20,716 nt of DNA from a virus (Duplodnaviria > Heunggongvirae > Uroviricota > Caudoviricetes). The stretch is from IMG/VR virus record IMGVR_UViG_2541047849_000003, positions 1 through 20,716 of that record; one strand, written 5' to 3'. Positions 1,331 through 20,716 of the stretch are shown piece by piece. A model generated the notes under the pieces. It searched no databases. It saw only the letters and a list, made by a program, of their open reading frames with translations, and had not been told where the DNA came from. How positions within the stretch are numbered: the first letter of the stretch is position 1; each line of letters begins with the position of its first letter. The position numbers and the translations under genes are program-made.

Positions 1331-1345
1331 GCTTTTTTATACTAA
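1331..1345. other. attL: Prophage attL core (lambda-type 15-bp common core GCTTTTTTATACTAA) with lambda P-prime arm to about 1420
   Basis: The core GCTTTTTTATACTAA is present, preceded by bacterial B-arm sequence (GTTGAAGCCT) and followed by P-prime arm sequence (GCATTATAAAAAAGCATTGCTTATCAATTTGTTGCAACGAACAGGTCACTATCAGTCAAAATAAAATCATT) carrying Int arm-type site motifs. Recognised from memory of lambda attP. Confidence 0.85.
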
Positions 1346-1418
1346 GTAGGCATTATAAAAAAGCATTGCTTATCAATTTGTTGCAACGAACAGGTCACTA
1401 TCAGTCAAAATAAAATCA

Positions 1419-2489
1419 TTATTTGATTTCAATTTTGTCCCACTCCCTGCCTCTGTCATCACGATACTGTGATGCCATGGTGTCCGACTTATGCCCGAGA
1501 AGATGTTGAGCAAACTTATCGCTTATCTGCTTCTCATAGAGTCTTGCAGACAAACTGCGCAACTCGTGAAAGGTAGGCGGATCCCCTTCGAAGGAAAGAC
1601 CTGATGCTTTTCGTGCGCGCATAAAATACCTTGATACTGTGCCGGATGAAAGCGGTTCACGACGAGTAGATGCAATTATGGTTTCTCCGCCAAGAATCTC
1701 TTTGCATTTATCAAGTGTTTCCTTCATTGATATTCCGAGAGCATCAACATGCAATGTTGTAGGGATGGCAATTTTTACGCCTGTTTTGCTTTGCTCGACG
1801 TAAAGATATCCATCTACGATATCAGACCACTTCATTTCGCATAAATCACCAACTCGCTGCCCGGTAACAACAGCCAGTTCCATTGCAAGTCTTAACCAAC
1901 ATGGTGATGATTCTGCTGCTTGATAAATTTTCAGGTATTCGTCAGCCGTAAGTCTTGATCTCCTTACCTCTGATTTTGCTGCGCGAGTGGCAGCGACAGG
2001 GTTTGTTGTTATATGGCCTTCAGCTATTGCCTCTCGGAATGCATCGCTCAGTGTTGATCTGATTAACTTGGCTGACGCAGCCTTGCCCTCGTCTATGTAT
2101 CCATTGAGCATTGCCGCAATTTCTTTTGTGGTGATGTCTTCAAGTGGAGCATCAGGCAGACCCCTCCTTATTGCTTTAATTTTGCTCATGTAATTTATGA
2201 GTGTCTTCTGCTTGATTCCTCTGCTGGCGAGGATTTTTTCGTAGCGATCAAGCCATGAATGTAACGTAACAGAATTATCACTGTTGATTCTCGCTGTCAG
2301 AGGCTTGTGTTTGTGTCCTGAAAATAACTCAATGTTGGCCTGTATAGCTTCAGTGATTGCTATCCTCCTGTCTCGGCCTAATCCAAACTCTTTACCCGTC
2401 CTTGGGTCCCTGTAGCAGTAATATCCATTGTTTCTTATATAAAGGTTAGGGGGTAAATCCCGGCGCTCATGACTTCGCCTTCTTCCCAT
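1419..2489 (-). CDS. int: Site-specific tyrosine integrase, lambda Int-like
   Basis: 356-aa ORF beginning MGRRRSHERRDLPPNLYIRNNGYYCYRDPRTGKEFGLGRDRR and ending ...HLLGHKSDTMASQYRDDRGREWDKIEIK, matching lambda Int as I recall it. Sits beside attL and overlaps xis as in lambda. Confidence 0.96.
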   Translation of the reverse strand: MGRRRSHERRDLPPNLYIRNNGYYCYRDPRTGKEFGLGRDRRIAITEAIQANIELFSGHKHKPLTARINSDNSVTLHSWLDRYEKILASRGIKQKTLINYMSKIKAIRRGLPDAPLEDITTKEIAAMLNGYIDEGKAASAKLIRSTLSDAFREAIAEGHITTNPVAATRAAKSEVRRSRLTADEYLKIYQAAESSPCWLRLAMELAVVTGQRVGDLCEMKWSDIVDGYLYVEQSKTGVKIAIPTTLHVDALGISMKETLDKCKEILGGETIIASTRREPLSSGTVSRYFMRARKASGLSFEGDPPTFHELRSLSARLYEKQISDKFAQHLLGHKSDTMASQYRDDRGREWDKIEIK

Positions 2490-2685
2490 TTCTGATCCTC
2501 TTCAAAAGGCTACCTGTTACTGGTCGATTTAAGTCAACCTTTACCGCTGATTCGTGGAACAGATACTCTCTTCCATCCTTAACCGGAGGAGGGAATATCC
2601 TGCATTCGCGCACCCATCGACGAACTGTTTCAAGGCTTCTTGGGCGTCGCTGGCGAGCGTTCCACTCCTGAAGTGTCAAGTACAT
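2467..2685 (-). CDS. xis: Excisionase, lambda Xis-like
   Basis: 72-aa ORF MYLTLQEWNARQRRPRSLETVRRWVRECRIFPPPVKDGREYLFHESAVKVDLNRPVTGSLLKRIRNGKKAKS. Its 3' end overlaps the int start by 23 nt, the lambda arrangement. Confidence 0.95.
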   Translation of the reverse strand: MYLTLQEWNARQRRPRSLETVRRWVRECRIFPPPVKDGREYLFHESAVKVDLNRPVTGSLLKRIRNGKKAKS

Positions 2686-2775
2686 CGCAAAGTCTCCGCA
2701 ATTACACGCAAGAAAAAACCGCCATCAGGCGGCTTGGTGTTCTTTCAGTTCTTCAATTCGAATATTGGTTACGTC

Positions 2776-3075
2776 TTATTCGATGCGCACTCCTGGTATT
2801 TCGCCTTTTGATATTGCGAAGTCATAAATTTGCGCAGCACTATACCCATCTCGCATCCATGAATCTAATGCGCGAATAGCCTCGCTACGCTTTTTATCTT
2901 CTCTCTCATTTTTGATATCAACGAGGACATCAACGCAATTAAGGCATATGTGGATTTTGTCCTTACATTCGATCATGGCGGCTTTACCATGATTTCCGCC
3001 ACACAGTGAGCATAAATCTTCAGGGTCTTGCTGGTATTTCTGTAACGTTAGAGGGTTTAATGTTGAACAGACCAT
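2776..3075 (-). CDS. Hypothetical small cysteine-rich protein (CxxC...CxxC, zinc-ribbon-like), early-left ea-region position
   Basis: ORF open to 3087. Three in-frame ATGs at the 5' end; the third (3073-3075) has GGAG 8 nt upstream. Same strand as int and xis. Contains CSLCGG and CLNC motifs. Confidence 0.5.
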   Translation of the reverse strand: MVCSTLNPLTLQKYQQDPEDLCSLCGGNHGKAAMIECKDKIHICLNCVDVLVDIKNEREDKKRSEAIRALDSWMRDGYSAAQIYDFAISKGEIPGVRIE

Positions 3076-3146
3076 AATCATCTCCATAAAACAAAATTCG
3101 CCGTAGCAAGTTCAGATAAAAGAAATCCCCGCGAGTGCGAGGATTG

Positions 3147-3323: not shown

Positions 3324-3495
3324 AATTCGCTTATCGTAGAGAACAGAATTGGCATTATTCCAGCGCCAGAAAATGGATTATGGAAGGCAGCGCATAGAAA
3401 AGTTGGCAGTGATAGTACCCCATATCATATGACTCAAGATGAAAACCCACTCCGCGCTGCCATGATTGTCTTTCTCATGATGCAGGACGCCAATA

Positions 3496-3672
3496 ATGCT
3501 TAGCCCATCCCAATCCATTCAATACCAGAAAGAAAGCGTCGAGCGGGCTTTAACGTGCGCTAACTGCGGTCAGAAGCTGCATGTGCTGGAAGTTCACGTG
3601 TGCTCAGATTGCTGCGCAGAACTGATGAGCGATCCGAATAGCTCAATGTACGAGGAAGAAGACGATGAATGA
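3496..3672 (+). CDS. Hypothetical 58-aa cysteine-rich protein (CANCGQ...CSDCC), translationally coupled to the downstream Rha gene
   Basis: ATG at 3496; its stop TGA (3670-3672) overlaps the ATG of the next gene in an ATGAATGA arrangement. Putative metal-binding Cys cluster. Confidence 0.45.
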   Translation: MLSPSQSIQYQKESVERALTCANCGQKLHVLEVHVCSDCCAELMSDPNSSMYEEEDDE

Positions 3673-4282
3673 GTTAATAAATGGCAATGCCATCAAAATG
3701 ACAAGCATTGAAATCGCTGAGTTGGTTGGTAAGCGTCATGACAATGTGAAACGTACCATCGAAACGCTGGCTAAAAATGGTGTTATCCGGCTTCCTCAAA
3801 TTGAGGATTGTGTAAGAATCAATGGGTTAGGCTTAAATCAAAGTTTTTGTGTGTATGTATTCGAAGGCGAACAAGGAAAGCGAGACAGTATTGTCGTTGT
3901 AGCCCAGTTGTCGCCGGAATTCACCGCTCGTCTTGTTGACCGTTGGCGAGAGCTTGAAGAAACTGCGGTTAATATCCCCAAAACGCTACCAGAAGCGTTG
4001 CGCCTTGCTGCTGATCTTGCTGAGCAGAAAATGCAACTGGAAAACCAGCTCGCAATTGCCGCACCTAAAGTTGAGTTTGCCGATCGAGTTGGCGAGGCCA
4101 GCGGAATTTTGATTGGAAACTTTGCAAAGGTTGTCGGTATTGGTCCAAACAAACTGTTTGCGTGGATGCGTGATCACAAAATCCTTATTGCTTCAGGTTC
4201 CCGGCGAAATGTGCCAATGCAGGAATATATGGATCGCGGCTATTTCACAGTGAAAGAAACAGCGGTCAACCAGCGAAGATAG
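3665..4282 (+). CDS. Rha-family phage regulatory protein with KilA-C/ANT-type C-terminal domain, apparently 3'-truncated
   Basis: N-terminus has the Rha hallmark IAELVGKRHDNVKRTIETL. The C-terminal region (KLFAWMRDHKILIASGSRRNVPMQEYMDRGYFTVKE) resembles the KilA-C antirepressor domain but stops about 25-30 residues earlier than such domains normally do. AGGAAG ribosome-binding site upstream. Confidence 0.7.
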   Translation: MNELINGNAIKMTSIEIAELVGKRHDNVKRTIETLAKNGVIRLPQIEDCVRINGLGLNQSFCVYVFEGEQGKRDSIVVVAQLSPEFTARLVDRWRELEETAVNIPKTLPEALRLAADLAEQKMQLENQLAIAAPKVEFADRVGEASGILIGNFAKVVGIGPNKLFAWMRDHKILIASGSRRNVPMQEYMDRGYFTVKETAVNQRR

Positions 4283-4352: not shown

Positions 4353-4955
4353 ATGCGTCAGTCTCAGAAACCCGTCGAGCAGCAGCCGGTAATCACTCAA
4401 CCACCGCGAATGCCAAAACTGGATGATGAGGACATCGGTTTCGATGAAGAAATCTATCAGCAACGCATGGCTAAGTGGGCAGAGGATAACGGAAAGTACC
4501 AGCAACAGGAGATGGCTCGCAAGCAGAAGGAGCAGGAGCTTCATGCTGCTTATCAAGAGCGATTATCCAAATATCAGCAACGTGTTAAGGCTCTCAAGGT
4601 TCCTGGCTATCAGGAAGCAGAACAGGCCGTACTCGAGGAAATCCCCATCGAGACACAAAACGCGATCCTGTTTGAGTCAGAGAAGCCGGAAATCGTTGTT
4701 CTGGCGCTCGGTCGCAACGCTGAACTGCGCAAGCAACTGGCAGAAGCTACCAACCCCGTAGCAATTGGTCGTCTGCTGGAACGTATCGAATCGAAGGCCA
4801 GAATCATGCCAAAAGCAAAAACCACGGCAGCCACAACCCCGACAGTTAAGGGGAGCAACGGCGCAGTAATCAATAACCTCGACAAACTGAAAGCCAAGGC
4901 GCTGGAAACTGGTGACTGGACGCCGTATTTCGCCGCTAAAAAGGCAAAAAAATAA
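4353..4955 (+). CDS. P22-like scaffolding protein, N-terminally truncated remnant (reading frame open from 4254)
   Basis: C-terminal region (LGRNAELRKQLAEATNPVAIGRLLERIESK...KLKAKALETGDW) resembles the coat-binding C-terminus of P22 gp8. Lies immediately upstream of the coat gene. Scaffold-like sequence continues in frame upstream of the first ATG back to 4254, with no start codon there. Confidence 0.6.
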   Translation: MRQSQKPVEQQPVITQPPRMPKLDDEDIGFDEEIYQQRMAKWAEDNGKYQQQEMARKQKEQELHAAYQERLSKYQQRVKALKVPGYQEAEQAVLEEIPIETQNAILFESEKPEIVVLALGRNAELRKQLAEATNPVAIGRLLERIESKARIMPKAKTTAATTPTVKGSNGAVINNLDKLKAKALETGDWTPYFAAKKAKK

Positions 4956-4973: not shown

Positions 4974-6227
4974 ATGGCTAACCAATTAGCAAAAGACCTT
5001 GAAATCATGTTCGAAAACTACGTTGAAGGCTTTGAGGCCGCCTGCGTAGTTTCCCGTAACGCTAAAAAATTCCGTCCCGGTGATACCGCAATGCAGCGAG
5101 CAGGTGATGTTCTGTATCGTCCGCAGCATTACCACATGAACATTGAAGAAGGCCTCGATCTCAGCGGCAAAACGCCTACAGCACTGGTTCAGCGCCTTGT
5201 TCCTTCTGTGTTCAAGGAGCCGAAAAACATTCTGTACACTCTGGATGCGCGTGAAATGCGTGACCCGGAACATAAAACTGAAGCTGGTCGCGCCGCAGGT
5301 ATGCGCCTTGCTGCACAGATTGACTCTGACCTGATTTCCATGGTCACGCAGCGTGCTACTAACGTGATCACAATGGCTGACTCAACAACTGGTTCACAGG
5401 GCCGTGATTTGTGGAACTGTGCGGCAGGTATTGATGCCACCATGACGGCGATTGGTGTACCTCAGGGTATCAACCGTCGCTCTTTCTGGAACCCCTTCAA
5501 CTACAAAGACCTTGCTGGCGAGCTTGGTCACCGTGCCTATGCTCAGGGCGCAACCCTGACAGCATACGAAAAAGCGCAGATCCCTCCGGTTGCGTCCTTC
5601 GATAGCTACAAGACCGATATTTCTGGTCGTGTTCCGAAGGGTACAGCAACTTCCATTACGCTGGCAGCAGCACCTGCGCACAAGGTTGAAGCGAAAGATG
5701 CTAACGATATGCCAGTGGATAACCGACAGGGGACCATTACGGTATCTGCATCTGGTTTGCAGGTTGGCGATGCGTTTACCATCGCAGGGGTGAATTCCGT
5801 ACACCAGATCACCAAAGATACCACCGGGCAGCCGCAGGTATTCCGCGTTCTGGCAGTTAGCGGAACGACAGTAACTATCTCCCCGAAAATTCTGCCGCCT
5901 GACAACGCGGATGTCGCCAGCCGTCCATATGCAAACGTTGATGCTAATGCGGCAAGTAGCGCAGCAATCACCATTCTCAACAAAAATGCCGCACCGGCTA
6001 ACCTGTTCTGGGCTGATGGTTCTGTTGAACTGATGTACGGCAAACTGGCGTTCCCGACTGGTCAGGGTCCACAGGTAATGACAGCAACCACCGAGCAGGG
6101 CGCTACGCTGATCATGTCTTACGCCTTCGACCACATCAAAGGCGTAACCACTGCGCGTTTCACCACTCTGTACGGTTGCTCTGTACTGGTTCCTGAATAT
6201 ACGGGCATCGTTATTGCCGGGCAGTAA
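4974..6227 (+). CDS. Major capsid (coat) protein, P22 gp5-like
   Basis: 417-aa ORF with GGAG ribosome-binding site. Overall architecture and the C-terminal FWADGSVEL motif resemble P22 coat protein. Followed by a strong terminator. Confidence 0.85.
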   Translation: MANQLAKDLEIMFENYVEGFEAACVVSRNAKKFRPGDTAMQRAGDVLYRPQHYHMNIEEGLDLSGKTPTALVQRLVPSVFKEPKNILYTLDAREMRDPEHKTEAGRAAGMRLAAQIDSDLISMVTQRATNVITMADSTTGSQGRDLWNCAAGIDATMTAIGVPQGINRRSFWNPFNYKDLAGELGHRAYAQGATLTAYEKAQIPPVASFDSYKTDISGRVPKGTATSITLAAAPAHKVEAKDANDMPVDNRQGTITVSASGLQVGDAFTIAGVNSVHQITKDTTGQPQVFRVLAVSGTTVTISPKILPPDNADVASRPYANVDANAASSAAITILNKNAAPANLFWADGSVELMYGKLAFPTGQGPQVMTATTEQGATLIMSYAFDHIKGVTTARFTTLYGCSVLVPEYTGIVIAGQ

Positions 6228-6268: not shown

Positions 6269-6457
6269 ATGGCACGAACAATGCTCTATAAGCCGGGCAA
6301 CATGATCACCTGTGGTCAGTTTGCTGTCGATTACATCATTGTTGATGACGAAGAAGTTAAATCTCACCTGAAAAAAGGCTGGGTAAAAACTCCTGAAGAA
6401 ACCGCAACGAAGCAAAAAGTGGCTAAGGCGGAAGAAGATGGCGAAAACGAAGGGTGA
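6269..6457 (+). CDS. Hypothetical small protein between coat and gp4-like genes
   Basis: ATG at 6269 preceded by GGGAGAAG. 62 aa; overlaps the next gene start by 20 nt. Confidence 0.45.
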   Translation: MARTMLYKPGNMITCGQFAVDYIIVDDEEVKSHLKKGWVKTPEETATKQKVAKAEEDGENEG

Positions 6458-6899
6458 TCTCGTTCTTAAGGCTTTACGAAAAGCCGGGCTGTATTCCAAT
6501 GCCACGTTGACAGATGCTGACCCTCAGGCAATTGAAGATGCCATTAATGACCTCGAAGACATGATGGCAGCATGGCAGGCTAAAGGTATCGAGCTTGGAT
6601 ATCAGTTTGCTGATACAGAAAACGGCATCATGCCGTTACCTGACGATGATTCAGGTATCCCTGCATGGGCAAATGATGGCGTCGCTTTGAAACTCGCTGT
6701 GCAAGTGTGCATGGATAACGTCATTCAGCCGTCAGACGCTCTCCTTACCGCTGCTGACAGTGCATATCAAACAATCTGTATCGCTTTAACCAAAATACCA
6801 CCACTTGAGCGACGAAATGACATGCCTCGCGGGGCGGGGTTAAAAAGCGCGTTTACGTGGAATCGGTTTTACATCGAGAAAGATGATCCGAGTACGTGA
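6438..6899 (+). CDS. Head completion / tail accessory protein, P22 gp4-like
   Basis: 153 aa. N-terminus KTKGDLV..ALRKAG...ATLTD and the LEDMMAAWQ motif resemble P22 gp4. Gene order after coat matches P22. Confidence 0.8.
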   Translation: MAKTKGDLVLKALRKAGLYSNATLTDADPQAIEDAINDLEDMMAAWQAKGIELGYQFADTENGIMPLPDDDSGIPAWANDGVALKLAVQVCMDNVIQPSDALLTAADSAYQTICIALTKIPPLERRNDMPRGAGLKSAFTWNRFYIEKDDPST

Positions 6900-6908
6900 G
6901 GTGAATAA

Positions 6909-8327
6909 ATGCCGATTCAGCAACTTCCGCTTATGAAAGGTGTCGGCAAAGACTTTCGAAACGCCGACTATATCGACTATCTGCCAGTGAATATGTTGGC
7001 TACACCCAAAGAAATCCTTAACAGCAGCGGATATCTTCGCTCATTCCCTGGCATTGCCAAACGTTCTGATGTGAACGGTGCATCTCGCGGCGTCGAGTAC
7101 AACATGGCGCAGAATGCTGTTTATCGCGTATGTGGTGGCAAGCTGTACAAAGGAGAAAGCGAGGTCGGTGATGTTGCCGGAAGTGGTCGCGTATCAATGG
7201 CGCATGGTCGAACATCTCAGGCGGTAGGCGTTAATGGTCAACTGGTAGAGTATCGCTATGATGGCACGGTTAAAACCGTCTCAAACTGGCCTGCAGACAG
7301 CGGATTCACTCAGTATGAGTTAGGTTCGGTTCGTGACATTACGCGCTTGCGCGGGCGTTATGCGTGGTCAAAAGACGGCACTGATTCATGGTTTATCACT
7401 GACCTTGGAGACGAATCACATCCTGACCGTTACAGCGCACAATATCGCGCAGAATCGCAGCCTGACGGCATCATCGGCATCGGAACATGGCGAGACTTCA
7501 TCGTATGCTTTGGTTCATCAACGATTGAATATTTCTCCCTGACTGGTGCAACCACCGTTGGTGCTGCTTTGTATGTCGCGCAGCCATCGCTGATGGTGCA
7601 AAAAGGCATCGCCGGAACTTACTGCAAAACGCCGTTTGCTGATTCCTATGCGTTCATCAGCAATCCGGCAACAGGTGCGCCGTCTGTGTACATCATCGGC
7701 TCCGGTCAGGTGTCACCAATCGCCAGCGCGAGCATTGAGAAAATACTACGCTCCTACACTGCTGATGAACTGGCTGATGGCGTAATGGAATCGTTGCGGT
7801 TTGATGCTCATGAGTTGCTGATTATCCACCTGCCGCGCCATGTTCTTGTTTACGACGCATCTTCAAGTGCCAATGGTCCGCAATGGTGTGTGCTGAAAAC
7901 AGGCCTGTATGACGATGTGTACCGCGCTATCGACTTCATTTACGAAGGCAATCAGATAACGTGCGGCGATAAGCTGGAATCTGTTACCGGGAAACTGCAG
8001 TTCGATATCAGCAGCCAGTACGACAAGCAACAGGAACACCTGCTGTTTACTCCACTGTTCAAAGCGGATAACGCCAGAGTTTTCGACCTTGAGGTTGAAT
8101 CGTCAACTGGCGTTGCGCAGTACGCCGACCGCCTGTTCCTCTCTGCAACCACTGACGGCATCAATTACGGACGTGAGCAGATGATTGAGCAGAATGAACC
8201 GTTCGTTTACGACAAACGCGTTTTGTGGAAGAAAGTAGGGCGCATCAGGAAAAACATTGGCTTCAAATTGCGCGTTATCACGAAGTCACCTGTCACTCTG
8301 TCTGGCGCTCAGATAAGGATTGAGTAA
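6909..8327 (+). CDS. Tail accessory protein, P22 gp10-like
   Basis: 472 aa, the same length as P22 gp10. N-terminus [49 protein letters not shown] matches my recollection of gp10. Confidence 0.85.
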
Positions 8328-9028
8328 TGGTTGATTCATCACTGAATGATCCTGTCGTGGTTCAGGCTACGCGCCTTGATGCTTCAATTTTGCCACGCAA
8401 TATATTCAGCCAGTCTTACCTGCTGTATGTCATAAATCAGGGTGCTGATGTTGGCGCAATTGCCGGGAAGGCAAATCAGGCTGGTCAGGGCGCTTACGAT
8501 GCTCAGGTAAAAAACGATGAACAGGACGTCGAACTGGCAGATCATGACGCAAGAATCACCGCAAACACAAAAGCGATAAATCTCCTTGAGGTCAGGTTAA
8601 CAACCGCCGAAGGGAAGATAGTCGTACTGCGTAGCGATGTTGATTACTTGCTGGATGAGGTTATCGCTATTCAGGCGCATCTGGTCACTGTTGACCAAAG
8701 ACTGGATGGCATAGAAAGCGATGTATCTGACATTAAGAGTGATTACGTATCGAAAACCGTAACCGAATCGCAGTCTCTTGCGTCACCGCTGGATGTAAAA
8801 ACATCATATTCAGTTGATGGAATTCAGGTAGTTGGAGCAAGGCAGACTGGATGGACTGCAGCCACAGGTACGCCACTTCTTGGCTCATTCAACGCAAACC
8901 AGTCATACACGGTCGGCACTACGTACACACAATCCGAAGTCGCGGCTCTCGCTACAGGTTTGCAGCAGGCGCGGCAGCGTATTCTGGCGCTTGAAACAGC
9001 ACTTAGATTACATGGGCTGATTGACTGA
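8327..9028 (+). CDS. Tail needle protein, P22 gp26-like
   Basis: 233 aa, the same length as P22 gp26. Shares the conserved N-terminus ([21 protein letters not shown]) and C-terminus ([32 protein letters not shown]). Start overlaps the upstream stop (TAATG). Confidence 0.85.
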
Positions 9029-9483
9029 TGATTACATTCAAACCAACGCGAAACATCGACCTGATAGAAGCAGTAGGAAATCACCCTGACATTATTGCCG
9101 GGAGCAACAACGGTGATGGATACGACTACAAACCTGAATGCCGTTACTTTGAGGTGAACGTGCACGGGCAGTTCGGCGGCATTGTTTACTATCAGGAGAT
9201 TCAGCCGCTTACATTCGATTGCCACGCCATGTACCTGCCAGAGGTTCGTGGATTCAGCAAGGAAATCGGACTGGAGTTCTGGCGATACATTCTGACTAAC
9301 ACCACTGTTCAGTGTGTCACATCGTTCGCTGCGCGCAAATTCCGCCACGGGCAGATGTACTGCGCAATGATTGGCCTTAAGCGTGTAGGAACCATCAAGA
9401 AATACTTCAAAGGCGTGGATGACGTGACGTTTTATAGCGCCACACGCGAAGAACTAATCGACTTCCTGAATCACGGGAGATAG
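9028..9483 (+). CDS. P22 gp14-like protein
   Basis: 151 aa. Position and N-terminus [21 protein letters not shown] are consistent with P22 gp14. Start overlaps the upstream stop (TGATG). Confidence 0.7.
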   Translation: MITFKPTRNIDLIEAVGNHPDIIAGSNNGDGYDYKPECRYFEVNVHGQFGGIVYYQEIQPLTFDCHAMYLPEVRGFSKEIGLEFWRYILTNTTVQCVTSFAARKFRHGQMYCAMIGLKRVGTIKKYFKGVDDVTFYSATREELIDFLNHGR

Positions 9484-10178: not shown

Positions 10179-10188
10179 GGGGTAATCA

Positions 10189-11553: not shown

Positions 11554-13427
11554 TGGCTAAAGCATGGAAGGATGTTATCGCCTCTCCACAGTATCAGGCG
11601 TTAACTGAAGAACAGAAAGCACAGGCTCAAGCGCAATATTTTGATGAGGTTGTTGCCCCTAAGGCTGGTGACAAATGGGCTGAAGCAAGAGATCAGTTTT
11701 ATGCAGCATACCCTCCGCCTCAGCAGCAGAAAGAAGAACCATCATTGATGCAACAAGCTGGCGATTGGCTCACAGGTGGTCAAAGTGCCGGGCAAATTGC
11801 AGAACAGGCTGGTCGTGGTCTGGTAAACATACCATTTGACGTATTGCAGGGTGGCGCAAGTCTGATTAATGCTATCAGCCAGGGGCTTGGTGGCCCAAAG
11901 GTTTTGGATGATGTTTATCGCCCTGTCGATCGACCGACAGACCCCTACGCACAAGCCGGTGAAACAATTGGTGGGTATTTAGTTCCAGGAGTTGGAACGG
12001 CAGGAAGCATGGCTATTGGATCACTGGCAGAGGCCGCAAATCAGAAAGGCGATTTCGCACAAAATGCAGCTAAAAATGCCGGAGTTAACCTTGCCGCTCA
12101 AGGTGTTCTTTCCGCAGCAGCAAAGGGAATAGGGCGTGGAATAACGGCTATAAAAGGTGATATTGCGCCAGAAGTGGCGAAGAAAATTGCCACATCAGAA
12201 TCGATGGGCGTGACACCAATGACATCTGATGTTATCCCGCCGAAAAATGCTTTCACTCGCGGCCTTACTCAGGATGCCGAGGGGGCTTTGCTCGGGACGG
12301 GCTCAAAGCGAGCAGAGCAATATGCAACGCGTAGTAAGCTGGTAAGCAATTATTTTGACCGTTTTGGTGAGTACAACCCTGATGATGTGGTGAAATCTCT
12401 GACCACCACGTTAAGGGGACGGAAGGATACTGCTGGCGCTGTTATCAATGACGTCACCAATAAAATGGGTAATGCCGCAGTTGATACCACAAATACCATG
12501 AATGCTCTGAATACAGCGATCGCAAGACAGGAACGGCTTGGGACTTCAGCCAATCAAAGCCTGCTTACATCCTTGCGTAACCTACGTGAAGAATTAGCAA
12601 ACCCTGCAACTGATTTGGATGTTACGTTTGATCTCTTGCGTCAGCACAGAACAGCCTTTAGATCTAATGTTCAGGGAGATGCTATGGTCTTCCCCAACCA
12701 GGCAAAAGCAGCTACCAATATGGTAGAGAATGCAATGTCAAAAGACCTTCGTAACGCAGTTGCTAAAAACCTCGGTGCATCAGACGCAGCAAAATACCTT
12801 AAAGCAAATTCCGATTATGCAAACGTTTATAATAAGGTGCTTAATAAAAACATTGCTAACAAACTCAACAAGGCAAGCAGTGAAGCCAGTCCTGAACTTA
12901 TAAATACCGTTGTATTAAGCAGAAAACCATCTGACGTGAAACGAATCTGGAGCGCACTGGATGATAAAGGGAAAGATGCTATGCGTGCAGCTTACGTCAG
13001 CAAAATAGCGGAAAAGGCCGGTGACTCTCCAGCCAAGTTCATCACTGAAGTTAATAAGCTGAAATCTCAGTCAGGCGGTGAAATTTACAACACTATTTTT
13101 TCTGGAAAGCACATGAAAGAACTTGATGCTCTTAATGAAGTTCTACAGCAAACAGCAAGGTCAGACACCGCAAATGTAGTAACTCAGACGGGGCAATCGC
13201 AAGCCAACAGGATAAGGACGATTGGCGCAACTGCGACTCTTGGCGTATCAATGGGGCTTGAGGCTGGTTTCGGTGCAATGATGCGCTTGTATGAGTCCAA
13301 AGCAGCAAGGAATGCGCTCTTACGTCTGGCAAACACCAAAGCAGGAACGCCAGCCTATGAAAGAGCATTAAGTAACGCTGCAAATGCCATCAGACCGCTG
13401 CTTGCCACTGAGGCAACACAGCAGTGA
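11553..13427 (+). CDS. Ejection protein, P22 gp16-like
   Basis: 624 aa against 609 in P22 gp16. Start overlaps the gp20-like stop (TAATG). Gene order conserved. Confidence 0.7.
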
Positions 13428-13444: not shown

Positions 13445-13633
13445 CTATTTCCCTAGCACATGAAACAATGTTTGCTTTAATTCCACCCATACAATTATGA
13501 CCACTATAGACAGACAAAAGAAACTGAATGCATTGGCATCACGATCGAAACCTTCTCCGGCACTAAATCCGTAAAAGGTCATAAAAAATATAAAAATTGC
13601 GCACTTTGCAACGTTTACAAATTTTTTCTTCAC
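13445..13633 (-). CDS. Hypothetical small membrane protein (Lys-rich N-terminus, two hydrophobic segments)
   Basis: GTG start at 13631-13633 preceded by AAGGAGG with a 5-nt spacer. The supplied track extends the same frame to an ATG at 13708 without a ribosome-binding site. Hydrophobic stretches CAIFIFFMTFYGF and FSFFCLSIVVIIVWV. Confidence 0.4.
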   Translation of the reverse strand: MKKKFVNVAKCAIFIFFMTFYGFSAGEGFDRDANAFSFFCLSIVVIIVWVELKQTLFHVLGK

Positions 13634-13696
13634 ACCAACCTCCTTAGTTTTGAGCAGGATACCAGATGATAATGTGTAGTTGGAGTAGCGCGGTTG

Positions 13697-13787
13697 TAAT
13701 GCAAGCATTTTGTTTTGGTTTTATGCTTGCTTGTATGTGTGTACAGTGTATATAATGCAAGCATGTATCACAACAAGGTGCTTGCAT
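13697..13787 (+). promoter_or_regulatory. Promoter (-35 TTGCTT 13727-13732, -10 TATAAT 13751-13756) embedded in four copies of an operator-like motif ATGCAAGCA(T) in alternating orientation
   Basis: Forward copies at 13699-13708 and 13755-13764; reverse-complement copies at 13723-13730 and 13779-13787. A perfect TATAAT lies 18 bp after a TTG-containing -35. AAGGTG ribosome-binding site 8 nt before the ATG at 13789. Confidence 0.4.
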
Positions 13788-13788
13788 T

Positions 13789-14781
13789 ATGACTGAAAAG
13801 AAAAGTGGCGAAGGGAAAGCTAAGGGCGGTATCGCTCGCGCAAAGTCGCTGACTAAAGAGCAGCGTTCTGAAATAGCAAAGAAAGCAGCGGCTGCAAGAT
13901 GGAAGGATAAACCATTAATTGCTACGCATAAGGGATCGTTCCAGCATGAATTCGGGATTGATGTTGAGTGCTATGTGTTAAATGATGATAACAAAACTGC
14001 CGTTATTAGCCAGAGAGGCATGGGAGAAGCGATTGGTCTTGGCGAAGGTGGCAGCAGGTTGCCAAAGTTTATTCAGGGGAAAACTATTTCTCAGTATATC
14101 GGGCATGAATTAAGGGCAAAACTTGAAAATCCTCTTATTTTTCAATACAAACAGGCGGGCACGAACACTCCAGCTAATCCTGTAATACATGGCTACGATG
14201 TAACAATATTAATTGATTTATGTCGAGCAATCTCTAATGCTAAAGCCGAAGGTAAGTTGCTTTCCAGTCAGGAAGGGATTGCTAAGCAAGCCAGAATCAT
14301 TATTGATGCATCAGCCAAGGCGGGCATTCAGGGGCTTGTTTATGCTTTGGCAGGGTATGACAGAACAAAAGAAGAGGTAATTCAAGCATATAAGCGATAT
14401 GTTGCTGAAGAGGCTCGTGAGTATGAAAGAGAGTTCACCCCTGAACTTTATGAGCATTGGTATCGTCTGTATGGTATAGACAAACCAGTTAGAGGGCGAC
14501 CATGGGCGTTTAAATATCTTACGATAGATCACATTTATTACCCATTAGCCAGAAGTGAAGGAAAGGTATTTAATTTAGCAAAAACGTCAAAAGAAGAAAA
14601 AGGCAGCAAAAACGATAAAATACACCAGTTTTTATCAGAGGTTGGAGTTAAGGCTCTTAGAACCCAAATAGGTAAGGTTACTGGTATTGCAATGGTTTCT
14701 GATACTCGAGAAGAGTATGAGAAATACATAGATGAAAAGGTTATTGGACAAAGAACCATAGACTTAAAAGATAAAGAATAA
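13789..14781 (+). CDS. Hypothetical accessory protein, probably P63C-domain family (phage regulatory or antirepressor-associated domain of unknown function)
   Basis: 330 aa. Basic N-terminal tail GGIARAKSLTKEQRSEIAKKAAAARW, then ...ECYVLNDDNKTAVISQRGMGEAIGLGEGGSRLPKF..., which matches my memory of the conserved P63C core. AT-rich codon usage unlike the flanking structural genes. Own promoter upstream and terminator downstream. Confidence 0.6.
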   Translation: MTEKKSGEGKAKGGIARAKSLTKEQRSEIAKKAAAARWKDKPLIATHKGSFQHEFGIDVECYVLNDDNKTAVISQRGMGEAIGLGEGGSRLPKFIQGKTISQYIGHELRAKLENPLIFQYKQAGTNTPANPVIHGYDVTILIDLCRAISNAKAEGKLLSSQEGIAKQARIIIDASAKAGIQGLVYALAGYDRTKEEVIQAYKRYVAEEAREYEREFTPELYEHWYRLYGIDKPVRGRPWAFKYLTIDHIYYPLARSEGKVFNLAKTSKEEKGSKNDKIHQFLSEVGVKALRTQIGKVTGIAMVSDTREEYEKYIDEKVIGQRTIDLKDKE

Positions 14782-14787
14782 GAAAAT

Positions 14788-14809
14788 CCCACCGTCAGGT
14801 GGGTTTTTT
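14788..14809. terminator. Rho-independent terminator between convergent genes, probably bidirectional
   Basis: CCCACC-GTCA-GGTGGG hairpin followed by TTTTTT and preceded by an A-rich run. Lies between the plus-strand gene ending at 14781 and the minus-strand ORF ending at 14835. Confidence 0.65.
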
Positions 14810-15183
14810 ATAAGGAGTAATCATGATTTACCCATCAAACAACCCACCAGTTTGCCTGATTGGATGCCAGCCTTGCAGTTTTTATGGAATTAATTATGCC
14901 ATGCTCAAGAGCCTTGTTAGCATCCAAAATGGTCGAGTCTGCTATCAGGGATGCCCACCTAATATGGGTTCCGATGTCGATATTGAACGTCTCAACGAAG
15001 CGATCAAGATCGTTATCGAGGCATTTCCCGTACTCTCTCAATCTGGCATGGTCGGCGGCTGGGGAGGCAAAGCACCATAATAGAGGATGTAACAGGAATC
15101 TTGATAATGGGTTTGCGAAACGTTCTGAGCCAGCCAGGAAAACGATATTAGCTATGGATTCAACATTGCTTATGTTGTGAGTT

Positions 15184-15187
15184 CTAA
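15184..15187. repeat. IS5 target-site duplication CTAA, left copy (right copy at 16383-16386)
   Basis: Identical 4-bp CTAA immediately flanks both inverted-repeat ends of the IS element. IS5 is known to duplicate a YTAR tetramer. Confidence 0.8.
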
Positions 15188-16382
<1,195 letters not shown>

Positions 16383-16569: not shown

Positions 16570-16818
16570 TTATTTTTCATCCTTACCATACATGGTCTTT
16601 AGCGTCTCAAGCAGCGCCTCTTTGAATTTGTCAGCTTCTTGCTGAGCAAATGACTCAACTGACTTTGGCGACCTATCTTCATCAATCGCGGCTTGCAAAA
16701 TCATGACGATCTCGGAGTTAACAGAGCGACCATTTTTTGATGCTCTGACAGCAAGAGCCTCGCGTAAAGATTCAGGGATTCTTACCGTAGTTGGAGAAAT
16801 TGACACACCCTTTGCCAT
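16570..16818 (-). CDS. mnt: Ribbon-helix-helix repressor, P22 Mnt-like
   Basis: 82 aa against 83 in P22 Mnt. Contains the RHH signature NGRSVNSEI. Transcribed divergently from the arc-like gene. AAAGGTG ribosome-binding site. Confidence 0.8.
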   Translation of the reverse strand: MAKGVSISPTTVRIPESLREALAVRASKNGRSVNSEIVMILQAAIDEDRSPKSVESFAQQEADKFKEALLETLKTMYGKDEK

Positions 16819-16932
16819 ATCACACCTTTGGTATTCAATTTGATATCAAAGTGTATGCAAAAAAATTTTGACTAGATATACTCACTTTGCTATCTTTTGT
16901 ATTCGAAAAGAGTTGTTTGTGTGGAGGGTAAC
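16819..16932. promoter_or_regulatory. Divergent mnt / arc-ant promoter-operator region with a 12-bp perfect palindrome TTTGATATCAAA (16839-16850) and a candidate rightward promoter (TTGACT 16867-16872, TATCTT 16890-16895)
   Basis: Intergenic region between divergently transcribed RHH repressor genes. The perfect palindrome is a plausible RHH-dimer operator. The -35/-10 pair has 17-bp spacing. Confidence 0.45.
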
Positions 16933-17085
16933 ATGGAGAAAGAAATAAGTAAGATTTTGGTAAGGATGCCGCAGTCGTTAAAGGATGCTATAGGTAGCAG
17001 GGCAAAGGAAGAGTGCAGGTCGTTTAACTCAGAGGTTATCAAGCGCCTGATAGACAGCTTGAAGAGAGAGGGGGTAATGGTATGA
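16933..17085 (+). CDS. arc: Ribbon-helix-helix repressor, P22 Arc-like
   Basis: 50 aa from the ATG at 16933 (GGAGG upstream); the supplied track extends the frame to 16897. The RMPQSLKDAIGSRAKEECRSFNSEVIKRL region matches the Arc/Mnt RHH fold pattern (P22 Arc: NLRWPREVLDLVRKVAEENGRSVNSEIYQRV). Confidence 0.75.
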   Translation: MEKEISKILVRMPQSLKDAIGSRAKEECRSFNSEVIKRLIDSLKREGVMV

Positions 17086-17285
17086 GTAAAGAATGTTGTT
17101 TCTGCGGCATTAGCGAATCAGACGCTGATCAAACATACATTTACTCTAAAGAAACAGGTCGGATGCTGTGTAGTGACTGCGTGTTGGACATCATAAGATA
17201 CAAGCATCTTGGATGTTCTGCCAGCATTAGCAATATAGGTGAAGTATATGAAGGGAAAGATATAACTGATAGAGCAGAAAGTTGA
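17082..17285 (+). CDS. Hypothetical Cys4 zinc-ribbon-like small protein inserted between arc and ant
   Basis: 67 aa with CCFCG and CSDC motifs. ATG overlaps the arc-like stop (ATGA). P22 has no ORF at this position, as far as I recall. Confidence 0.45.
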
Positions 17286-17347
17286 AGCCCCAACTGCGGG
17301 AACAGTCAGGGCTTCGGTTGTCAGTAAATCCGTGGAGAAAAACCAAC

Positions 17348-18250
17348 ATGAATAGTATAGCAATTTTAGAAGCAGTGAACACCTCTTACGTACCATTCAA
17401 CGGTCAGCAAATTATCACCGCCATGGCTGCCGGAGTTGCATATGTTGCGATGAAGCCAATCGTTGAAAACCTTGGAATGAGCTGGTCAACGCAGCAAACA
17501 AAACTCATGAAGCAGATTAGCAAATTCAACTGTGTTCATATGAACATGGTTGCCGCTGATGGGAAGCTTCGTAAGCTACTCTGCCTTCCTTTGAAGAAGT
17601 TAAATGGATGGCTGTTCAGCATCAACCCTGAGAAAGTTCGTGCTGACATCCGCGATAAACTGATTCAGTACCAGGAAGAATGCTTTACTGTGCTGCATGA
17701 CTACTGGACAAAGGGAAAGGCAGAAAATGCACGTAAGAAAACATCTGTTGATGACAGGACTCCGCTTCGTGATGCTGTAAATATGCTGGTCAGCAAAAAG
17801 CATCTAATGTACCCAGAAGCTTATGCAATGATTCATCAGCGTTTCAATGTGGAAAGTATTGAAGAGCTTGATGCGTCTCAGATACCGCAAGCCGTAGAGT
17901 ACATCCACAGGGTAGTGCTTGAAGGCGAATTCATCGGCAAACAAGAGAAGAAAACCAACGAGCTTTCTGCAAAAGAAGCAAACAGCCTTGTATGGCTATG
18001 GGATTATGCCAACCGCTCACAGGCATTATTCCGCGAACTGTATCCGGCGCTGAAACAAATTCAATCGAACTATTCCGGCAGATGTCATGACTGCGGTTAT
18101 GAGTTCTCCCGTATTATCGATATAGCGAGAGACGTTTTAATCAATCACTCACGAGATGTTGATATCAATGAGCCAGACGGACCAACGAATCTTTCCGCAT
18201 GGATGAGACTTAAGAATAAAGAATTACCTCCTTCAGTACATAACTACTGA
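17348..18250 (+). CDS. ant: Antirepressor, P22 Ant-like
   Basis: 300 aa from the ATG at 17348 (GGAG upstream); the supplied track's upstream start at 17282 is a TTG. Sits after mnt and arc and before the tailspike, as in P22 immI. N-terminus [21 protein letters not shown]. Confidence 0.8.
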
Positions 18251-18269
18251 CAGATAACCAACGCAACGA

Positions 18270-18292
18270 CCCAGCTTCGGCTGGGTTTTTTT
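18270..18292 (+). terminator. Rho-independent terminator after ant
   Basis: CCCAGC-TTCG-GCTGGG hairpin followed by TTTTTTT. Confidence 0.7.
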
Positions 18293-18349
18293 ATGCCCAA
18301 AATTCACCGTAGCTACGCTGCGGCGATTCCTTGTATCTGGAGTAATGAA

Positions 18350-20716
18350 ATGTCAGATATCACCGCAAATGTTGTGGTAAGCATGCCTTCGCAACTCTTC
18401 ACTATGGCTCGTTCTTTTAAAGCCGTAGCCAATGGCAAAATTTATATCGGTAAAATTGACACTGACCCGGTAAGTCCAGAAAACCAGATTCAGGTTTATG
18501 TAGAGAACGAAGACGGCTCTCATGTTCCTGTTTTGCAACCAATCATCATTAACGCTGCTGGATATCCGGTATATAACGGGCAGATTGCCAAATTCGTAAC
18601 TGTGCAAGGCCATTCTATGGCTGTATATGATGCACATGGCACTAAGCAGTTTTATTTTCCAAATGTATTAAAATACGATCCTGATCAACTTAGGGAAGAG
18701 ATTTTTTCTGACCGTATGCTGTTAATTACGCCACAGCATTATGGGGCGAAAGGTGACGGTGTTAACGATGATACGGTGGCATTTATTGCAGCAGCAAATG
18801 CTCTTGGAGATGGTGGAAAGTTATATATTCCAACTGGAACATATAATTTAATTGGACCAGTTAATATACCACCAGTGAATATGTGTGGCGATGGACAGGG
18901 TAAAACGGTTATTGTGTTTGATAATACCACATCACCAAAAGATGGATTTGTTTTCGCTGCACCAACTAAGCATGATGTTGAATTTGGTTTAAGTCACCTT
19001 ACAATTAAAAGCAAAGGCGGGAATGGCGCTAATGCCATATATACCCCAAGAGGTGTCGGGCTTAATCATCTAAGGCCAAAACCAACATTTAGATTTTTAT
19101 CTTTCTGTTCTGAGACTGCAAATATTGATTCTGATGAATTCGCACAGAAGTACGGTTGGGAATGGTCTTTTAACTGTGGTGATAGTTGGCAGTTCACAAT
19201 CGAACGCATTGATGCTGTTGGATGTTATCAGATAGCCAAAAGTTATAATGAACAGTTCCTTGATGGATTCATTCGCACCGCTCCAGAAGAAGGGATTTTA
19301 TCAATGCGTGTGAGTGATATCACAACGCATAATGTTGCAAATTTTTTTGAAATTAAGCAGAAGACATATTTTACATTGCTTAATATTGATGCCGCCAAGG
19401 CATTACGAGGCATTTACGACGCTGATGATCGTATATTTGAAACGAATCGTTATGCTTATGGTGAATGTATATGCACAAATGTTGGTATTAATGCCCAACT
19501 TGAACCAGTACGGCTGGATAACAGATTCCTGCTCATCATGAATGGTATGTTTATTCACCGCGCAGCAAAAGGTTACGATCATGGTCTGGAATGGGTTGGT
19601 CTTAAGCTTAGTCGTGCTCGCGTGTGTTCATTCCAGGGAATTGAGATCGGCACTGCCAGAGGGTATTCAGGGACTAAGAAAGGGATTGTTCTTGACGCCG
19701 GTGATGCAAATAACTTTACCAATGTAACTTTTGGTCTGCTTGATGTGTGCGCACAGATTGGCGATTCCAATTCACAGTATGGTGCCAACTTTGCAACATG
19801 CTTTAATAATGTGAGCATTAATGCTGACACCGTATTGTTATTCGATTTGCAGCTGTGCAGAAATTTCCATTGTGATGGATACGGAGCATCTTCTGCCTAC
19901 ACTCTTCAGCAATTCCATAGGAACAGTGATGACACAAGCAATACTTATACATTTAGTAATGTAGGTAAACACAATCTCTACACTGACAACTCGCTGCATC
20001 TACATAATTCTGCTTCGCTGGAGAACGGGAAGAATATACGTATTGATACACGAAACGGATTATCTGTTAGCACTCAAACAGATACTGGTTCCGCAGGAAA
20101 TAACTTCCTTATAATTCGTAGGACTGGTGTTGATATAGACAGTTTTGAGTTAAGGACTCGCAGTACAGCAGGTGCATATACATATATTAATACACCTGAA
20201 ACTCATTTTTCTGGCCTTATAAAACCAACTGTTGATAATGTTAACTCAAACGGAACATCAGCATTTCGATGGTCACAGGTATACGCTGGTACTGGCAGTA
20301 TCAACACGTCGAATGAAGAGCTGAAATTGCGTATTGAGGCTGACGAGAAAACAACAGAATCAGAGCGTCTTGCTGCGCTTGAAATAAAGGAAAATATCTG
20401 GAGGTTTAAATTTAAAGATGCAGTAAAGATCAAGAGTGATGGCGCTCGGATTCATTTCGGTGTTGGTGCACAAACTGTAGGTAATATTCTCAGAAAATAC
20501 GGTCTTGACCCTAATAACTATGCGTTCTGGTGTTATGATGAATGGGATGATATTTATGCTCCAGAGGTATTGATTAGGAGTGTTAAAAACAATGAAACAG
20601 GAGAGTGGTACGACGAGGAATATTACACAGGAAGGCAGGTTATTATTAAACCTGCTGGCTATCAGTATGGTATCAGATACGAGGAGCTTATGATGTTTAT
20701 TCTTATGTTTATTTAA
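18350..20716 (+). CDS. Tailspike protein: P22-type N-terminal head-binding domain, beta-helix depolymerase-like central domain, C-terminal intramolecular-chaperone-like domain
   Basis: 788 aa from the ATG at 18350 (GGAG upstream). N-terminal ~113 aa ([11 protein letters not shown]...[18 protein letters not shown]...[12 protein letters not shown]...NVLKYDPDQ) match the P22 gp9 head-binding domain. Central [19 protein letters not shown] is a pectate-lyase-type beta-helix motif. C-terminus (...[25 protein letters not shown]...) resembles peptidase S74-type chaperone domains. Stop TAA at 20714-20716. Confidence 0.85.

Follow-up and report, generated by a model that had tools for sequence, protein, structure and literature searches.

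The window analysed here, a stretch of 20,716 nucleotides from an IMG/VR virus record, begins in bacterial DNA. Positions 1-1330 match many E. coli genomes with 100% identity, including E. coli C, ATCC 8739 and B strains, where they are annotated as ybhC; the gene itself (1..1284, minus strand), whose product matches the Pfam family Pectinesterase on the source contig, represents the gal-side flank of att-lambda. The adjacent sequence GCTTTTTTATACTAA (1331..1345, plus strand) is the same as lambda 27724-27738, and the presence of E. coli ybhC to its left identifies it as the common core (B-O-P') of an attL at att-lambda. The following P' arm (1346..1418, plus strand) extends to the int 3' end. 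Window 1331-2776 and lambda 27724-29169 differ by 23 substitutions in an alignment of 1,446 nt (98.2% identity), and the whole P' arm together with the int 3' end equals lambda without mismatch from 1349 to 1658. An earlier note on this DNA had reported an A instead of a T next to the core at position 1347. The difference is real, but it is located at position 1348 (ACTAAGTAG versus ACTAAGTTG in lambda; T27741), and position 1347 is a T in both. The variant base lies outside the 15-bp common core and within the C' core-type Int-binding site (plus strand), and not in the overlap region.

The integrase (1419..2489, minus strand, 356 aa; Pfam Arm-DNA-bind_1 and Phage_integrase) shares 353 of its 356 residues with lambda Int (99.2% aa identity; H164P, A245T, I248V), retains all six catalytic residues (R212, K235, H308, R311, H333, Y342) and is 100% identical to the Int of phage JEP4. 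The excisionase Xis (2467..2685, minus strand, 72 aa; Pfam Exc, E = 3.9e-41) deviates from its lambda equivalent by the single change G59S (71/72 residues alike). The proposed lambda-like nature of attL core, P' arm, int and xis is confirmed. Normal expression of int and xis requires either cII at pI or N-antiterminated transcription from pL. Because the genes for cII and N are both deleted, int and xis are probably silent today.

Homology to lambda, JEP4 and the FORC_082 prophage ends at 2776, where the early-left accessory gene orf103 (2776..3087, minus strand; phrog_3680), whose function is unassigned, is located. It is followed by the remnant of an ea-region gene (3147-3323, minus strand; phrog_625) that abuts deletion junction 1 (3331..3334), at which the ea region is fused to the middle of ninX via the 4-bp microhomology TTAT. 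This junction was called from a three-way comparison of the window, phiv205-1 and the ninX region of strain LCP17S3_I1. Downstream are ninF (3496..3672, plus strand; Pfam NinF), whose product exhibits 95% aa identity to P22 NinF, and a roi-like Rha/KilAC antirepressor gene (3665..4282, plus strand; Pfam Phage_pRha and ANT). The latter is 93% identical to residues 1-202 of CUS-3 Roi and covers positions 1-80 of the 108-position Pfam profile; it lacks its 3' end and continues out of frame in scaffold sequence. The breakpoint is deletion junction 2 (4267..4269; 3-bp microhomology CAA), which fuses roi to the scaffold gene at about codon 69 and was called by comparing the window with the roi gene of LCP17S3_I1 and the scaffold gene of JEP4. 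Blastn maps complement the alignments at both junctions. No repressor/immC, N, cII, replication, Q, lysis, terminase or portal gene was found in the element.

The first ~68 codons of the scaffold gene are missing, and the remaining C-terminal 200 aa (4353..4955, plus strand; Pfam Phage-scaffold, profile positions 144-293 of 303) show 99.5% identity to residues ~98-297 of the CUS-3 scaffold. The adjacent coat protein gene (4974..6227, plus strand; Pfam P22_CoatProtein) is of the CUS-3 type, with identities of 95% to CUS-3, 99% to JEP4 and 29% to P22. Homologues of gp4, gp10, the tail needle gp26 and gp14 (6438..9483, plus strand; Pfam P22_Tail-4, Phage_stabilise for gp10 and DUF2824 for gp14; PHROG matches) precede the ejection proteins gp7, gp20 and gp16 (9486..13427, plus strand; Pfam P22_gp7, Inj_translocase for gp20; phrog_770 DNA transfer protein). 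The identity to the P22 equivalents ranges from 93% (gp10 and gp14 each) via 87% (gp7), 76% (gp16) and 62% (gp26 and gp20) to 39% (gp4), and none of the virion ORFs still present from coat to tailspike is truncated. The statement that every structural gene is P22-like accordingly holds only at family level and not for P22 itself (coat 29%, gp4 39%), and the module is incomplete. Judged by these similarities, the capsid genes are of the CUS-3 type and not of the P22 type.

A variable accessory-gene (moron) region occupies the position of P22 sieA (13445..15187); it contains orf87 on the minus strand, genes for a 330-aa P63C-domain protein and orf85, and the 3' portion of a ClpP-like gene. The region is bordered by an IS5 of 1,195 bp (15188..16382, minus strand; ends GGAAGGTGCGAA...) with a 326-aa transposase (DDE_Tnp_1 and DUF772). 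Its target duplication CTAA is present at 15184-15187 and 16383-16386, and the two flanks join directly, with a 4-bp overlap, in phiv205-1. The subsequent immI region (16570..18250), which contains the Pfam families of the Arc-type repressor and of Ant (P22_AR_N/C), comprises an mnt-like gene (16570-16818, minus strand), arc (16897-17085), orf67, the sar RNA (17280-17347, minus strand; Rfam, 95.6 bits) and ant (17282-18250; P22_AR_N/C). The tailspike gene (18350..20716, plus strand), for which an exact-protein match was obtained only with the start at 18350, encodes a P22 head-binding domain (Head_binding; 72% identity to P22), a pectate-lyase-like receptor domain whose best phage relative is 56% identical, and a C-terminal S74 chaperone. 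The earlier note had correctly assigned both the immI region and the head-binding domain to the P22 type.

The source of the window is a draft scaffold of 2.5 Mb (GCA_000459575.1, KE701198.1), in which attL and attR are embedded in the context ybhC to ybhB. The attR, whose presence beyond the window had been anticipated, is located 404 nt past the window end with a 15-bp core identical to that of attL, followed by B' (CTTGAGCG), ybhB and bioA, which corroborates the lambda attachment site as the location of the prophage. The 404 nt harbor no repressor, replication, lysis, terminase or portal gene. The prophage thus totals 19.8 kb, the left 19.4 kb of which are contained in the window. At attR, its P arm shows 96% identity to that of JEP4. 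Identity to lambda is ~72% across 419 nt (the 15-bp attR core and the 404 nt upstream of it) and noticeably higher in the last ~200 nt.

The A allele at 1348 is found in three of 1,881 complete E. coli genomes and in five IMG/VR contigs, compared with at least 120 contigs carrying the T allele. Its carriers include JEP4 (in attP), FORC_082 (in attL), 'numer 3' and 22KM0354. The identical Int protein is paired with the T allele at 51 loci and with the A allele at seven, and the A allele does not co-vary with Int residues. The T-to-A exchange represents a natural but rare variant of the C' core-type site; it accompanies this attP in a phage that forms plaques as well as in several prophages that have integrated, and is hence compatible with integration.

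We regard the element, with a probability of about 90%, as a defective remnant of a CUS-3/JEP4-type P22-like prophage with a lambda-type integrase, reduced to about half of its intact size. Direct observations are available for the sequence relationships, the two junctions, IS5 and the pair of att sites; we infer the following order of events. The ancestor would have been a CUS-3/JEP4-type member of the temperate P22-like podoviruses (Lederbergvirus), with attP, int and xis of lambda specificity. Int-mediated recombination of its attP with the E. coli attB between ybhC and ybhB would have generated attL (B-O-P') and attR (P-O-B'). About 20 kb were probably lost later by two illegitimate, microhomology-mediated deletions, the first ranging from the early-left accessory genes to mid-ninX and the second from mid-roi to about codon 69 of the scaffold gene, and IS5 would have been gained in the immI-proximal accessory region. 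The loss of repressor, N, cII, replication, Q/late promoter, lysis, terminase and portal predicts that induction, replication, DNA packaging and particle formation are impossible, and the absence of the terminase implies that of the pac site. An integration module "driving" a virion module, as the earlier note put it, is hence not an adequate description of a deletion remnant that lacks regulators, terminase and portal and carries an IS5.

The intact state of int, xis, attL and attR, the full-length genes for coat, gp4, gp10, gp26, gp14, gp7, gp20, gp16, ant and tailspike, and the existence of the same design in intact form in JEP4 and the 'numer 3' prophage would be expected if the element were an intact and functional temperate mosaic, with a lambda-type integration module at the service of a complete virion module of the P22 type. 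This reading is already refuted by the gene content and has next to no probability left: repressor, replication, Q, lysis, terminase and portal genes are missing, the scaffold gene is truncated, the distance between xis and coat is ~2.3 kb compared with ~23 kb in JEP4, and the whole element measures 19.8 kb versus 39-40 kb in intact relatives. It is also very improbable that the junctions are chimeric short-read joins, by which related prophages were collapsed in a draft genome. The draft status of the source, the frequent presence of several lambdoid prophages with shared segments in E. coli, the number of places that match the window in a genome (median 3, up to 43), and the finding that no complete RefSeq E. 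coli genome contains both junctions, or at least 80% of the window, would fit such an artefact. Against it stand the correct succession of att sites and host genes on a 2.5-Mb scaffold, the presence of the roi-scaffold fusion protein, which spans junction 2, on three separate contigs, and an independent Logan assembly that repeats the right half of the element with 0 mismatches in 4,359 nt, its contig being interrupted within IS5. Moreover, similarly multiply deleted P22-like prophages occur in finished genomes, namely in FORC_082 (at att-lambda) and PSJ-29 (at the intS site). The deleted form is heritable and no one-off product of assembly. A 38-mer across junction 2 has no match in IMG/VR or among the GTDB species representatives, and this absence, together with the result for complete genomes, indicates that the deleted form is restricted to a narrow lineage, so that few genomes bear on its stability.

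The recurrence of the remnant in several sequenced samples could alternatively reflect selection, either for a helper-dependent satellite or for a domesticated module that benefits the host, for example through the tailspike, the ejection proteins or the accessory genes. About 14 kb of virion ORFs are uninterrupted, and a superinfecting lambda-type phage could excise the element in trans, given the undamaged state of int, xis and the two att sites. However, the small terminase gene, which carries pac according to the P22 annotation, is missing, regulators are absent, Q and the pR' late promoter region are deleted, and no consensus promoter was found upstream of the plus-strand genes between 2600 and 5100. 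The proteins of the moron region have no match among the PADLOC defence models, the IS5 and the ragged mid-gene deletion ends resemble decay, and clonal inheritance would account for the recurrence, given that the contigs are nearly identical. The intactness of the remaining virion genes of the defective prophage probably reflects recent decay and not selection; recent decay by itself leaves some room for selection of a retained function, a scenario that we consider highly unlikely.

The combination of lambda-type integration and a P22-type virion, which had been highlighted as a mosaic architecture, is already known from isolated phages and annotated prophages and thus ordinary. Among the closest relatives is the isolated phage JEP4 (MT740315, Lederbergvirus), which is 99.93% identical to the window in the DNA of 1331-2776, has an attP with the same A allele and exhibits the same gene order; its head and neck proteins are 95-99% identical, with 99% for coat and gp10, 98% for gp4 and 97% for gp14. 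JEP4 is complete at 39.2 kb and possesses the genes for terminase, portal and full scaffold as well as immC, replication, nin, Q and lysis genes. It also differs in the gp26 C-terminus, gp20 (73%), gp16 (60%), the immI region, the receptor domain of the tailspike and the absence of IS5. An essentially full-length prophage of 39.8 kb resides at att-lambda between ybhC and ybhB of E. coli 'numer 3' (NZ_CP141863) and shares the Int accession WP_000533643.1 and the A allele in attL with the window, together with a full P22-family late operon. The decayed prophage of FORC_082 (NZ_CP026641) agrees in site, Int accession (WP_000533643.1) and attL allele, has P22-family late genes and deviates on its left side by one base in 2,776. 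Its deletions differ, since terminase, portal and scaffold are kept and the regions between erf and the replication genes and from roi to the small terminase gene are lost. The K1-specific P22-like phage CUS-3 (CP000711) resembles the window in the procapsid and neck genes, including gp4 (98.7%), gp10 and gp14 (98% each), gp26 and gp7 (96% each), but identity drops to 47-55% for gp20, gp16 and Ant, and its tailspike is an endosialidase. No match to the window Int was found in CUS-3, whose int is located beside attL and adjoins the tailspike, in an orientation unlike the int-xis-early layout of the window. Lambda (NC_001416) shares the int module and attB, and beyond xis the window is unrelated to its b region, head and tail genes. 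P22 (NC_002371) has the same order of coat-4-10-26-14-7-20-16, accessory region, mnt-arc-sar-ant and tailspike, with identities of 86% for Ant, 37.5% for Mnt and 35% for Arc. Its own int and xis, whose products do not match Int and Xis of the window, adjoin a different attP core, and the reported integration site of P22 is thrW (PMC2629481).

The locus is a cryptic, non-inducible prophage remnant that has mapped deletion junctions and carries an IS5, and in it an integration module of the lambda type is joined to virion genes of the P22 family. The left flank is formed by the E. coli gene ybhC (1-1284, minus strand), and many E. coli chromosomes (strain C, ATCC 8739 and B derivatives among them) match bases 1-1330 at 100% identity. 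The phage-host junction attL is marked by the 15-bp common core GCTTTTTTATACTAA at 1331-1345, which is identical to positions 27724-27738 of phage lambda (NC_001416). The window from 1331 to 2776 aligns without gaps to lambda 27724-29169 and shows 23 substitutions (98.2% identity); past position 2776 the lambda similarity stops sharply. This alignment bears out the proposal of the earlier note that the att core, the P' arm, int and xis are lambda-like, and a merely distant relationship of the int region is dismissed by the same value together with the 99.2% identity of the Int protein. Int (1419-2489, minus strand) differs from its lambda equivalent by H164P, A245T and I248V. All six catalytic residues (R212, K235, H308, R311, H333, Y342) are kept, and the Pfam domains Arm-DNA-bind_1 and Phage_integrase identify the protein as a heterobivalent tyrosine recombinase. 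Xis (2467-2685, minus strand; Pfam Exc, E = 3.9e-41) shares 71 of 72 residues with lambda Xis, and its gene overlaps the 5' end of int by 23 nt, the same overlap as in lambda.

Positions 1349-1658, including the whole P' arm, are 100% identical to lambda, so that every P' arm site (the arm-type Int sites and the IHF site) is unchanged. The single difference beside the core that the earlier note described is real, but it is located at 1348 and not at 1347, a one-base coordinate error. The stretch 1341-1350 reads ACTAAGTAGG; window and lambda agree in T at base 1347 and differ at base 1348, where the window has A and lambda T27741. We take this base to be position +9 of the C' core-type Int-binding site, outside the overlap and the 15-bp common core, assuming the 7-bp lambda overlap TTTATAC and the core-type consensus CAACTTNNT, which reportedly goes back to the work of Ross and Landy. 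On the bottom strand the substitution converts the lambda C' site CAACTTAGT into CTACTTAGT; the bacterial B site carries a natural T at the corresponding +9 position.

The A allele is rare. A 60-mer of the lambda-type core and P' arm was detected in 1,881 of 5,426 complete E. coli genomes (35%), and three of them match the window exactly, i.e. with A. Among the matches listed for IMG/VR, A occurs in five contigs versus T in at least 120. The allele is also found in attP of JEP4 (MT740315), a complete Lederbergvirus, and in at least four prophages integrated at attB, and it accompanies at least two Int protein variants. For a covariation test of C' allele and recombinase, Int was extracted from about 109 loci with core and P' arm. 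The most frequent natural variant, P164/T245/V248, which is also that of the window, accompanies T in 51 loci and A in seven; co-evolution of the C' allele with Int was accordingly rejected, and the pairing of one and the same protein with both alleles gives no sign of a compensatory Int change. Judged by its distribution, the A allele is compatible with integration, because a viable phage has it in attP and prophages properly inserted at attB, with a normal attR, have it too. The reference lambda Int (H164/A245/I248) was found in four of about 100 readable loci with the T allele, natural sequences having mostly P164 and V248. Two small facts thus emerge for the lambda att system, namely a rare natural C' allele that appears compatible with integration and the minority status of the laboratory lambda Int.

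The right junction attR was sought beyond the window end. Exact protein look-up of the tailspike (start 18350) and of the product of a roi-scaffold gene fusion at one of the deletion junctions retrieved the assembly GCA_000459575.1 with the 2.5-Mb scaffold KE701198.1. Here attR is located 404 nt past the window (...CGTTCAGCTTTTTTATACTAACTTGAGCG...) with the order P-O-B', and its core is the same as that of attL. Beyond it lie ybhB and bioA-bioD, so the insertion site is E. coli attB between ybhC and ybhB in the gal-bio interval. The position of attR therefore sets the length of the prophage, from attL core to attR core, at 19.8 kb, compared to 39.2 kb in JEP4 and 39.8 kb in the prophage of E. 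coli strain 'numer 3' (NZ_CP141863). The P arm is 96% identical to those of JEP4 and of the prophage in E. coli FORC_082 (NZ_CP026641); against lambda the identity is about 72% over the 419 nt compared and clearly higher in the last ~200 nt.

The interval between xis and the coat gene comprises only about 2.3 kb. Two internal deletions were recognized in it by mapping with blastn against phages JEP4 and phiv205-1 and the prophage of FORC_082 and by three-way alignment of the junctions. At junction 1 (3331-3334), where TTAT is common to both parents, an accessory gene of the early-left region (phrog_625; 3147-3323, minus strand), present only as a remnant, is fused to ninX at about nucleotide 185. 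At junction 2 (4267-4269), where CAA is common to both, a roi-like Rha/KilAC gene has lost its 3' end and is fused to the scaffold gene at about codon 69; an internal ATG past the junction opens a 200-aa C-terminal ORF. Between them, the two deletions account for the loss of the remaining early-left operon, immC, the replication genes, ninB, ninE and everything from ninG to Q, and on the late side for that of the promoter, the lysis genes, the portal gene and the genes for both terminase subunits. Consequently, the virion module lacks small terminase, large terminase, portal and a full-length scaffold. Measured against the gene lists of JEP4 and 'numer 3', the immC repressor, cro and operators, N, the replication genes, Q with the late promoter and the lysis cassette are all absent between attL and attR. 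A promoter scan of 2600-5100 revealed no obvious new promoter for the virion genes; it returned a single weak match, on the minus strand, and shuffled sequence gave more.

Downstream of the deletions, the neck and tail genes 4, 10, 26 and 14 and the ejection genes 7, 20 and 16 are all present in the P22 order. Pfam recognizes P22_CoatProtein, P22_Tail-4, Phage_stabilise (gp10), DUF2824 (gp14), P22_gp7 and Inj_translocase (gp20), followed by Arc-family repressors, P22_AR_N/C (Ant) and Head_binding (tailspike), and gp26 and gp16 are assigned by PHROGs as tail needle and DNA transfer protein, respectively. The labels "P22-like" and "immI-like" are right at the family level on account of these Pfam and PHROGs matches and an Rfam match. 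The claim that every structural gene is P22-like holds at this level and is overstated with respect to P22 (NC_002371) itself, whose identity to the window proteins ranges widely (coat 29%, gp4 39%, gp26 and gp20 62% each, gp16 76%, gp7 87%, gp10 and gp14 93% each, Ant 86%, tailspike N-terminal domain 72%). A direct comparison with P22 and CUS-3 (CP000711) was used to type the procapsid genes. The full-length coat protein (PF11651, E = 4e-76) is 95% identical to that of CUS-3, the scaffold C-terminus 99.5% and gp4 98.7%, and these values identify the capsid genes, by sequence, as CUS-3-type and not P22-type. The ejection proteins (10189-13427) are mosaic within the family: the identity of gp16 amounts to 95% with the 'numer 3' prophage, 60% with JEP4 and 76% with P22, and gp20 is 62-74% identical to all compared relatives save CUS-3 (47%). 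The products of genes 10, 14 and 7, which flank the mosaic ejection genes, are 96-99% identical to CUS-3.

The predicted immI-like region was confirmed by mnt, arc and ant, which encode Arc-family ribbon-helix-helix proteins and P22_AR_N/C, and by the sar antisense RNA (RF00262; 17280-17347, minus strand), which scores 95.6 bits in Rfam against a gathering score of 43. In P22, sar RNA is located at the arc/ant boundary. In the window, the match takes in the end of orf67 as well as the initial codons of the listed ant ORF (17282-18250). The likewise predicted P22-like head-binding domain of the tailspike is supported by PF09008 (E = 2.6e-65) and by 72% identity to residues 1-120 of P22 gp9. The true start of this protein is probably M20 (18350) rather than the first ATG at 18293; the exact look-up gave a match for the start at 18350 and none for 18293 or 18347. 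In the tailspike (18350-20716), the P22 head-binding domain is followed by a pectate-lyase-like receptor domain and, at the C-terminus, an S74 chaperone of the endosialidase type, and the best match of the receptor part among 50,697 phage records, phage PSK1, is only 56% identical.

A complete IS5 element of 1,195 bp is located at 15188-16382. It has terminal inverted repeats (ends GGAAGGTGCGAA...), encodes a 326-aa transposase (DDE_Tnp_1/DUF772) and is flanked on either side by the duplicated target CTAA. It disrupts a ClpP-like accessory gene in the immI-proximal region, which is whole, with an unbroken insertion site, in phiv205-1. The N-terminal 63 aa of this gene are listed as orf71 (16355-16570, minus strand) and are 100% identical to the phiv205-1 homologue. 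A 330-aa P63C-domain protein (13789-14781; phrog_2384) and its neighbours orf87 and orf85 occupy the place of sieA in P22, and the stretch 13687-14778 has no counterpart in JEP4, phiv205-1 or FORC_082. At the opposite end, homology with lambda, JEP4 and FORC_082 breaks sharply at 2776/2777, where the cysteine-rich orf103 (2776-3087, minus strand; phrog_3680) replaces the small post-xis ORF of lambda; a 99-aa homologue is present in the P22-like remnant of E. coli PSJ-29 (L130, 9068-9367). PADLOC returned no match for orf103, orf87, the P63C protein, orf85, orf67 or the roi fusion, and PHROGs assigns the accessory ORFs only to families of unknown function, so a defence or other known role was rejected for them.

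We propose that the ancestor integrated through Int-mediated recombination between attP and attB and would later have decayed by illegitimate recombination and transposition. The resulting prophage would be unable to be induced, to replicate, to package DNA and to lyse the cell, and an intact phage, as the unbroken series of neck, tail and ejection genes might suggest, is not favoured for a locus devoid of terminase, portal and lysis genes. Expression of int and xis in lambda requires cII at pI or N-antiterminated transcription from pL. Both routes are gone in the remnant, and int and xis are therefore probably silent; a superinfecting lambda-type phage that supplies Int and Xis in trans could still excise the prophage.

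The deleted form was found by exact-protein look-up alone, in GCA_000459575.1 and in Logan runs. None of the complete RefSeq E. coli genomes covers at least 80% of the window or of 2700-4600, and a 38-mer across junction 2 is absent from IMG/VR and the GTDB species representatives. This narrow distribution could point to an assembly artefact, which is not favoured either: the independent Logan assembly ERR4578576 contains the right part of the remnant with 0 mismatches over 4,359 nt (its contig breaks inside IS5), and the remnant is thus real and inherited within its lineage. The approximately 14 kb of intact virion ORFs might also suggest a selected or satellite-like element, but they most simply reflect recent decay. 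Two further readings are considered unlikely. The A allele at +9 may measurably alter Int binding at C', so that this attP lineage would differ in efficiency or in its balance between integration and excision. Alternatively, the remnant may have been kept for a host benefit conferred by one of the genes still present, be it the tailspike gene, an ejection gene or an accessory gene (P63C-domain protein, orf103).

Decay of this kind has parallels. The P22-like prophages in the finished genomes of PSJ-29 (L130, 9000-19700) and FORC_082 (L001) have many internal deletions with partial portal, coat and ejection genes, and multiply deleted P22-like remnants appear to be common in E. coli. Prophage finders that score structural genes would overcall the present locus, and its corrected annotation is a useful outcome. 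The earlier note had described a lambda integration module driving a P22 virion module at the lambda site. The mosaic and the site stand, whereas the implied function falls with the recognition of a deletion remnant and the novelty with the existence of JEP4 and its like.

Lambdoid phages are textbook mosaics, and the significance of the present case is small, as the same join is known in sequenced plaque-forming phages and annotated prophages. The early regions of P22-like phages are described as highly mosaic, with several integration specificities and exchanges that extend throughout the lambdoid phages (PMC2629481), and high mosaicism has been reported for Lederbergvirus (PMC11990801). JEP4, isolated from a plaque (PMC8425383), encodes an identical Int, differs from the window by one nucleotide over 1331-2776, carries A at the C' site of attP and has a coat protein and gp10 with 99% identity. 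The int region of Huey, a temperate Lederbergvirus with turbid plaques on E. coli K-12 (PMC11990801), is 98.6% identical at the nucleotide level. The 'numer 3' prophage represents a full-length equivalent at the ybhC-ybhB site; it shares the A allele, its Int is WP_000533643.1 and its P22-family late operon is complete. FORC_082 harbors a differently decayed copy at the same site that differs from the window on the left in one of 2,776 bases. The combination of a lambda-specificity int-att cassette with P22-family virion genes is an architecture already known from JEP4, Huey and annotated prophages.
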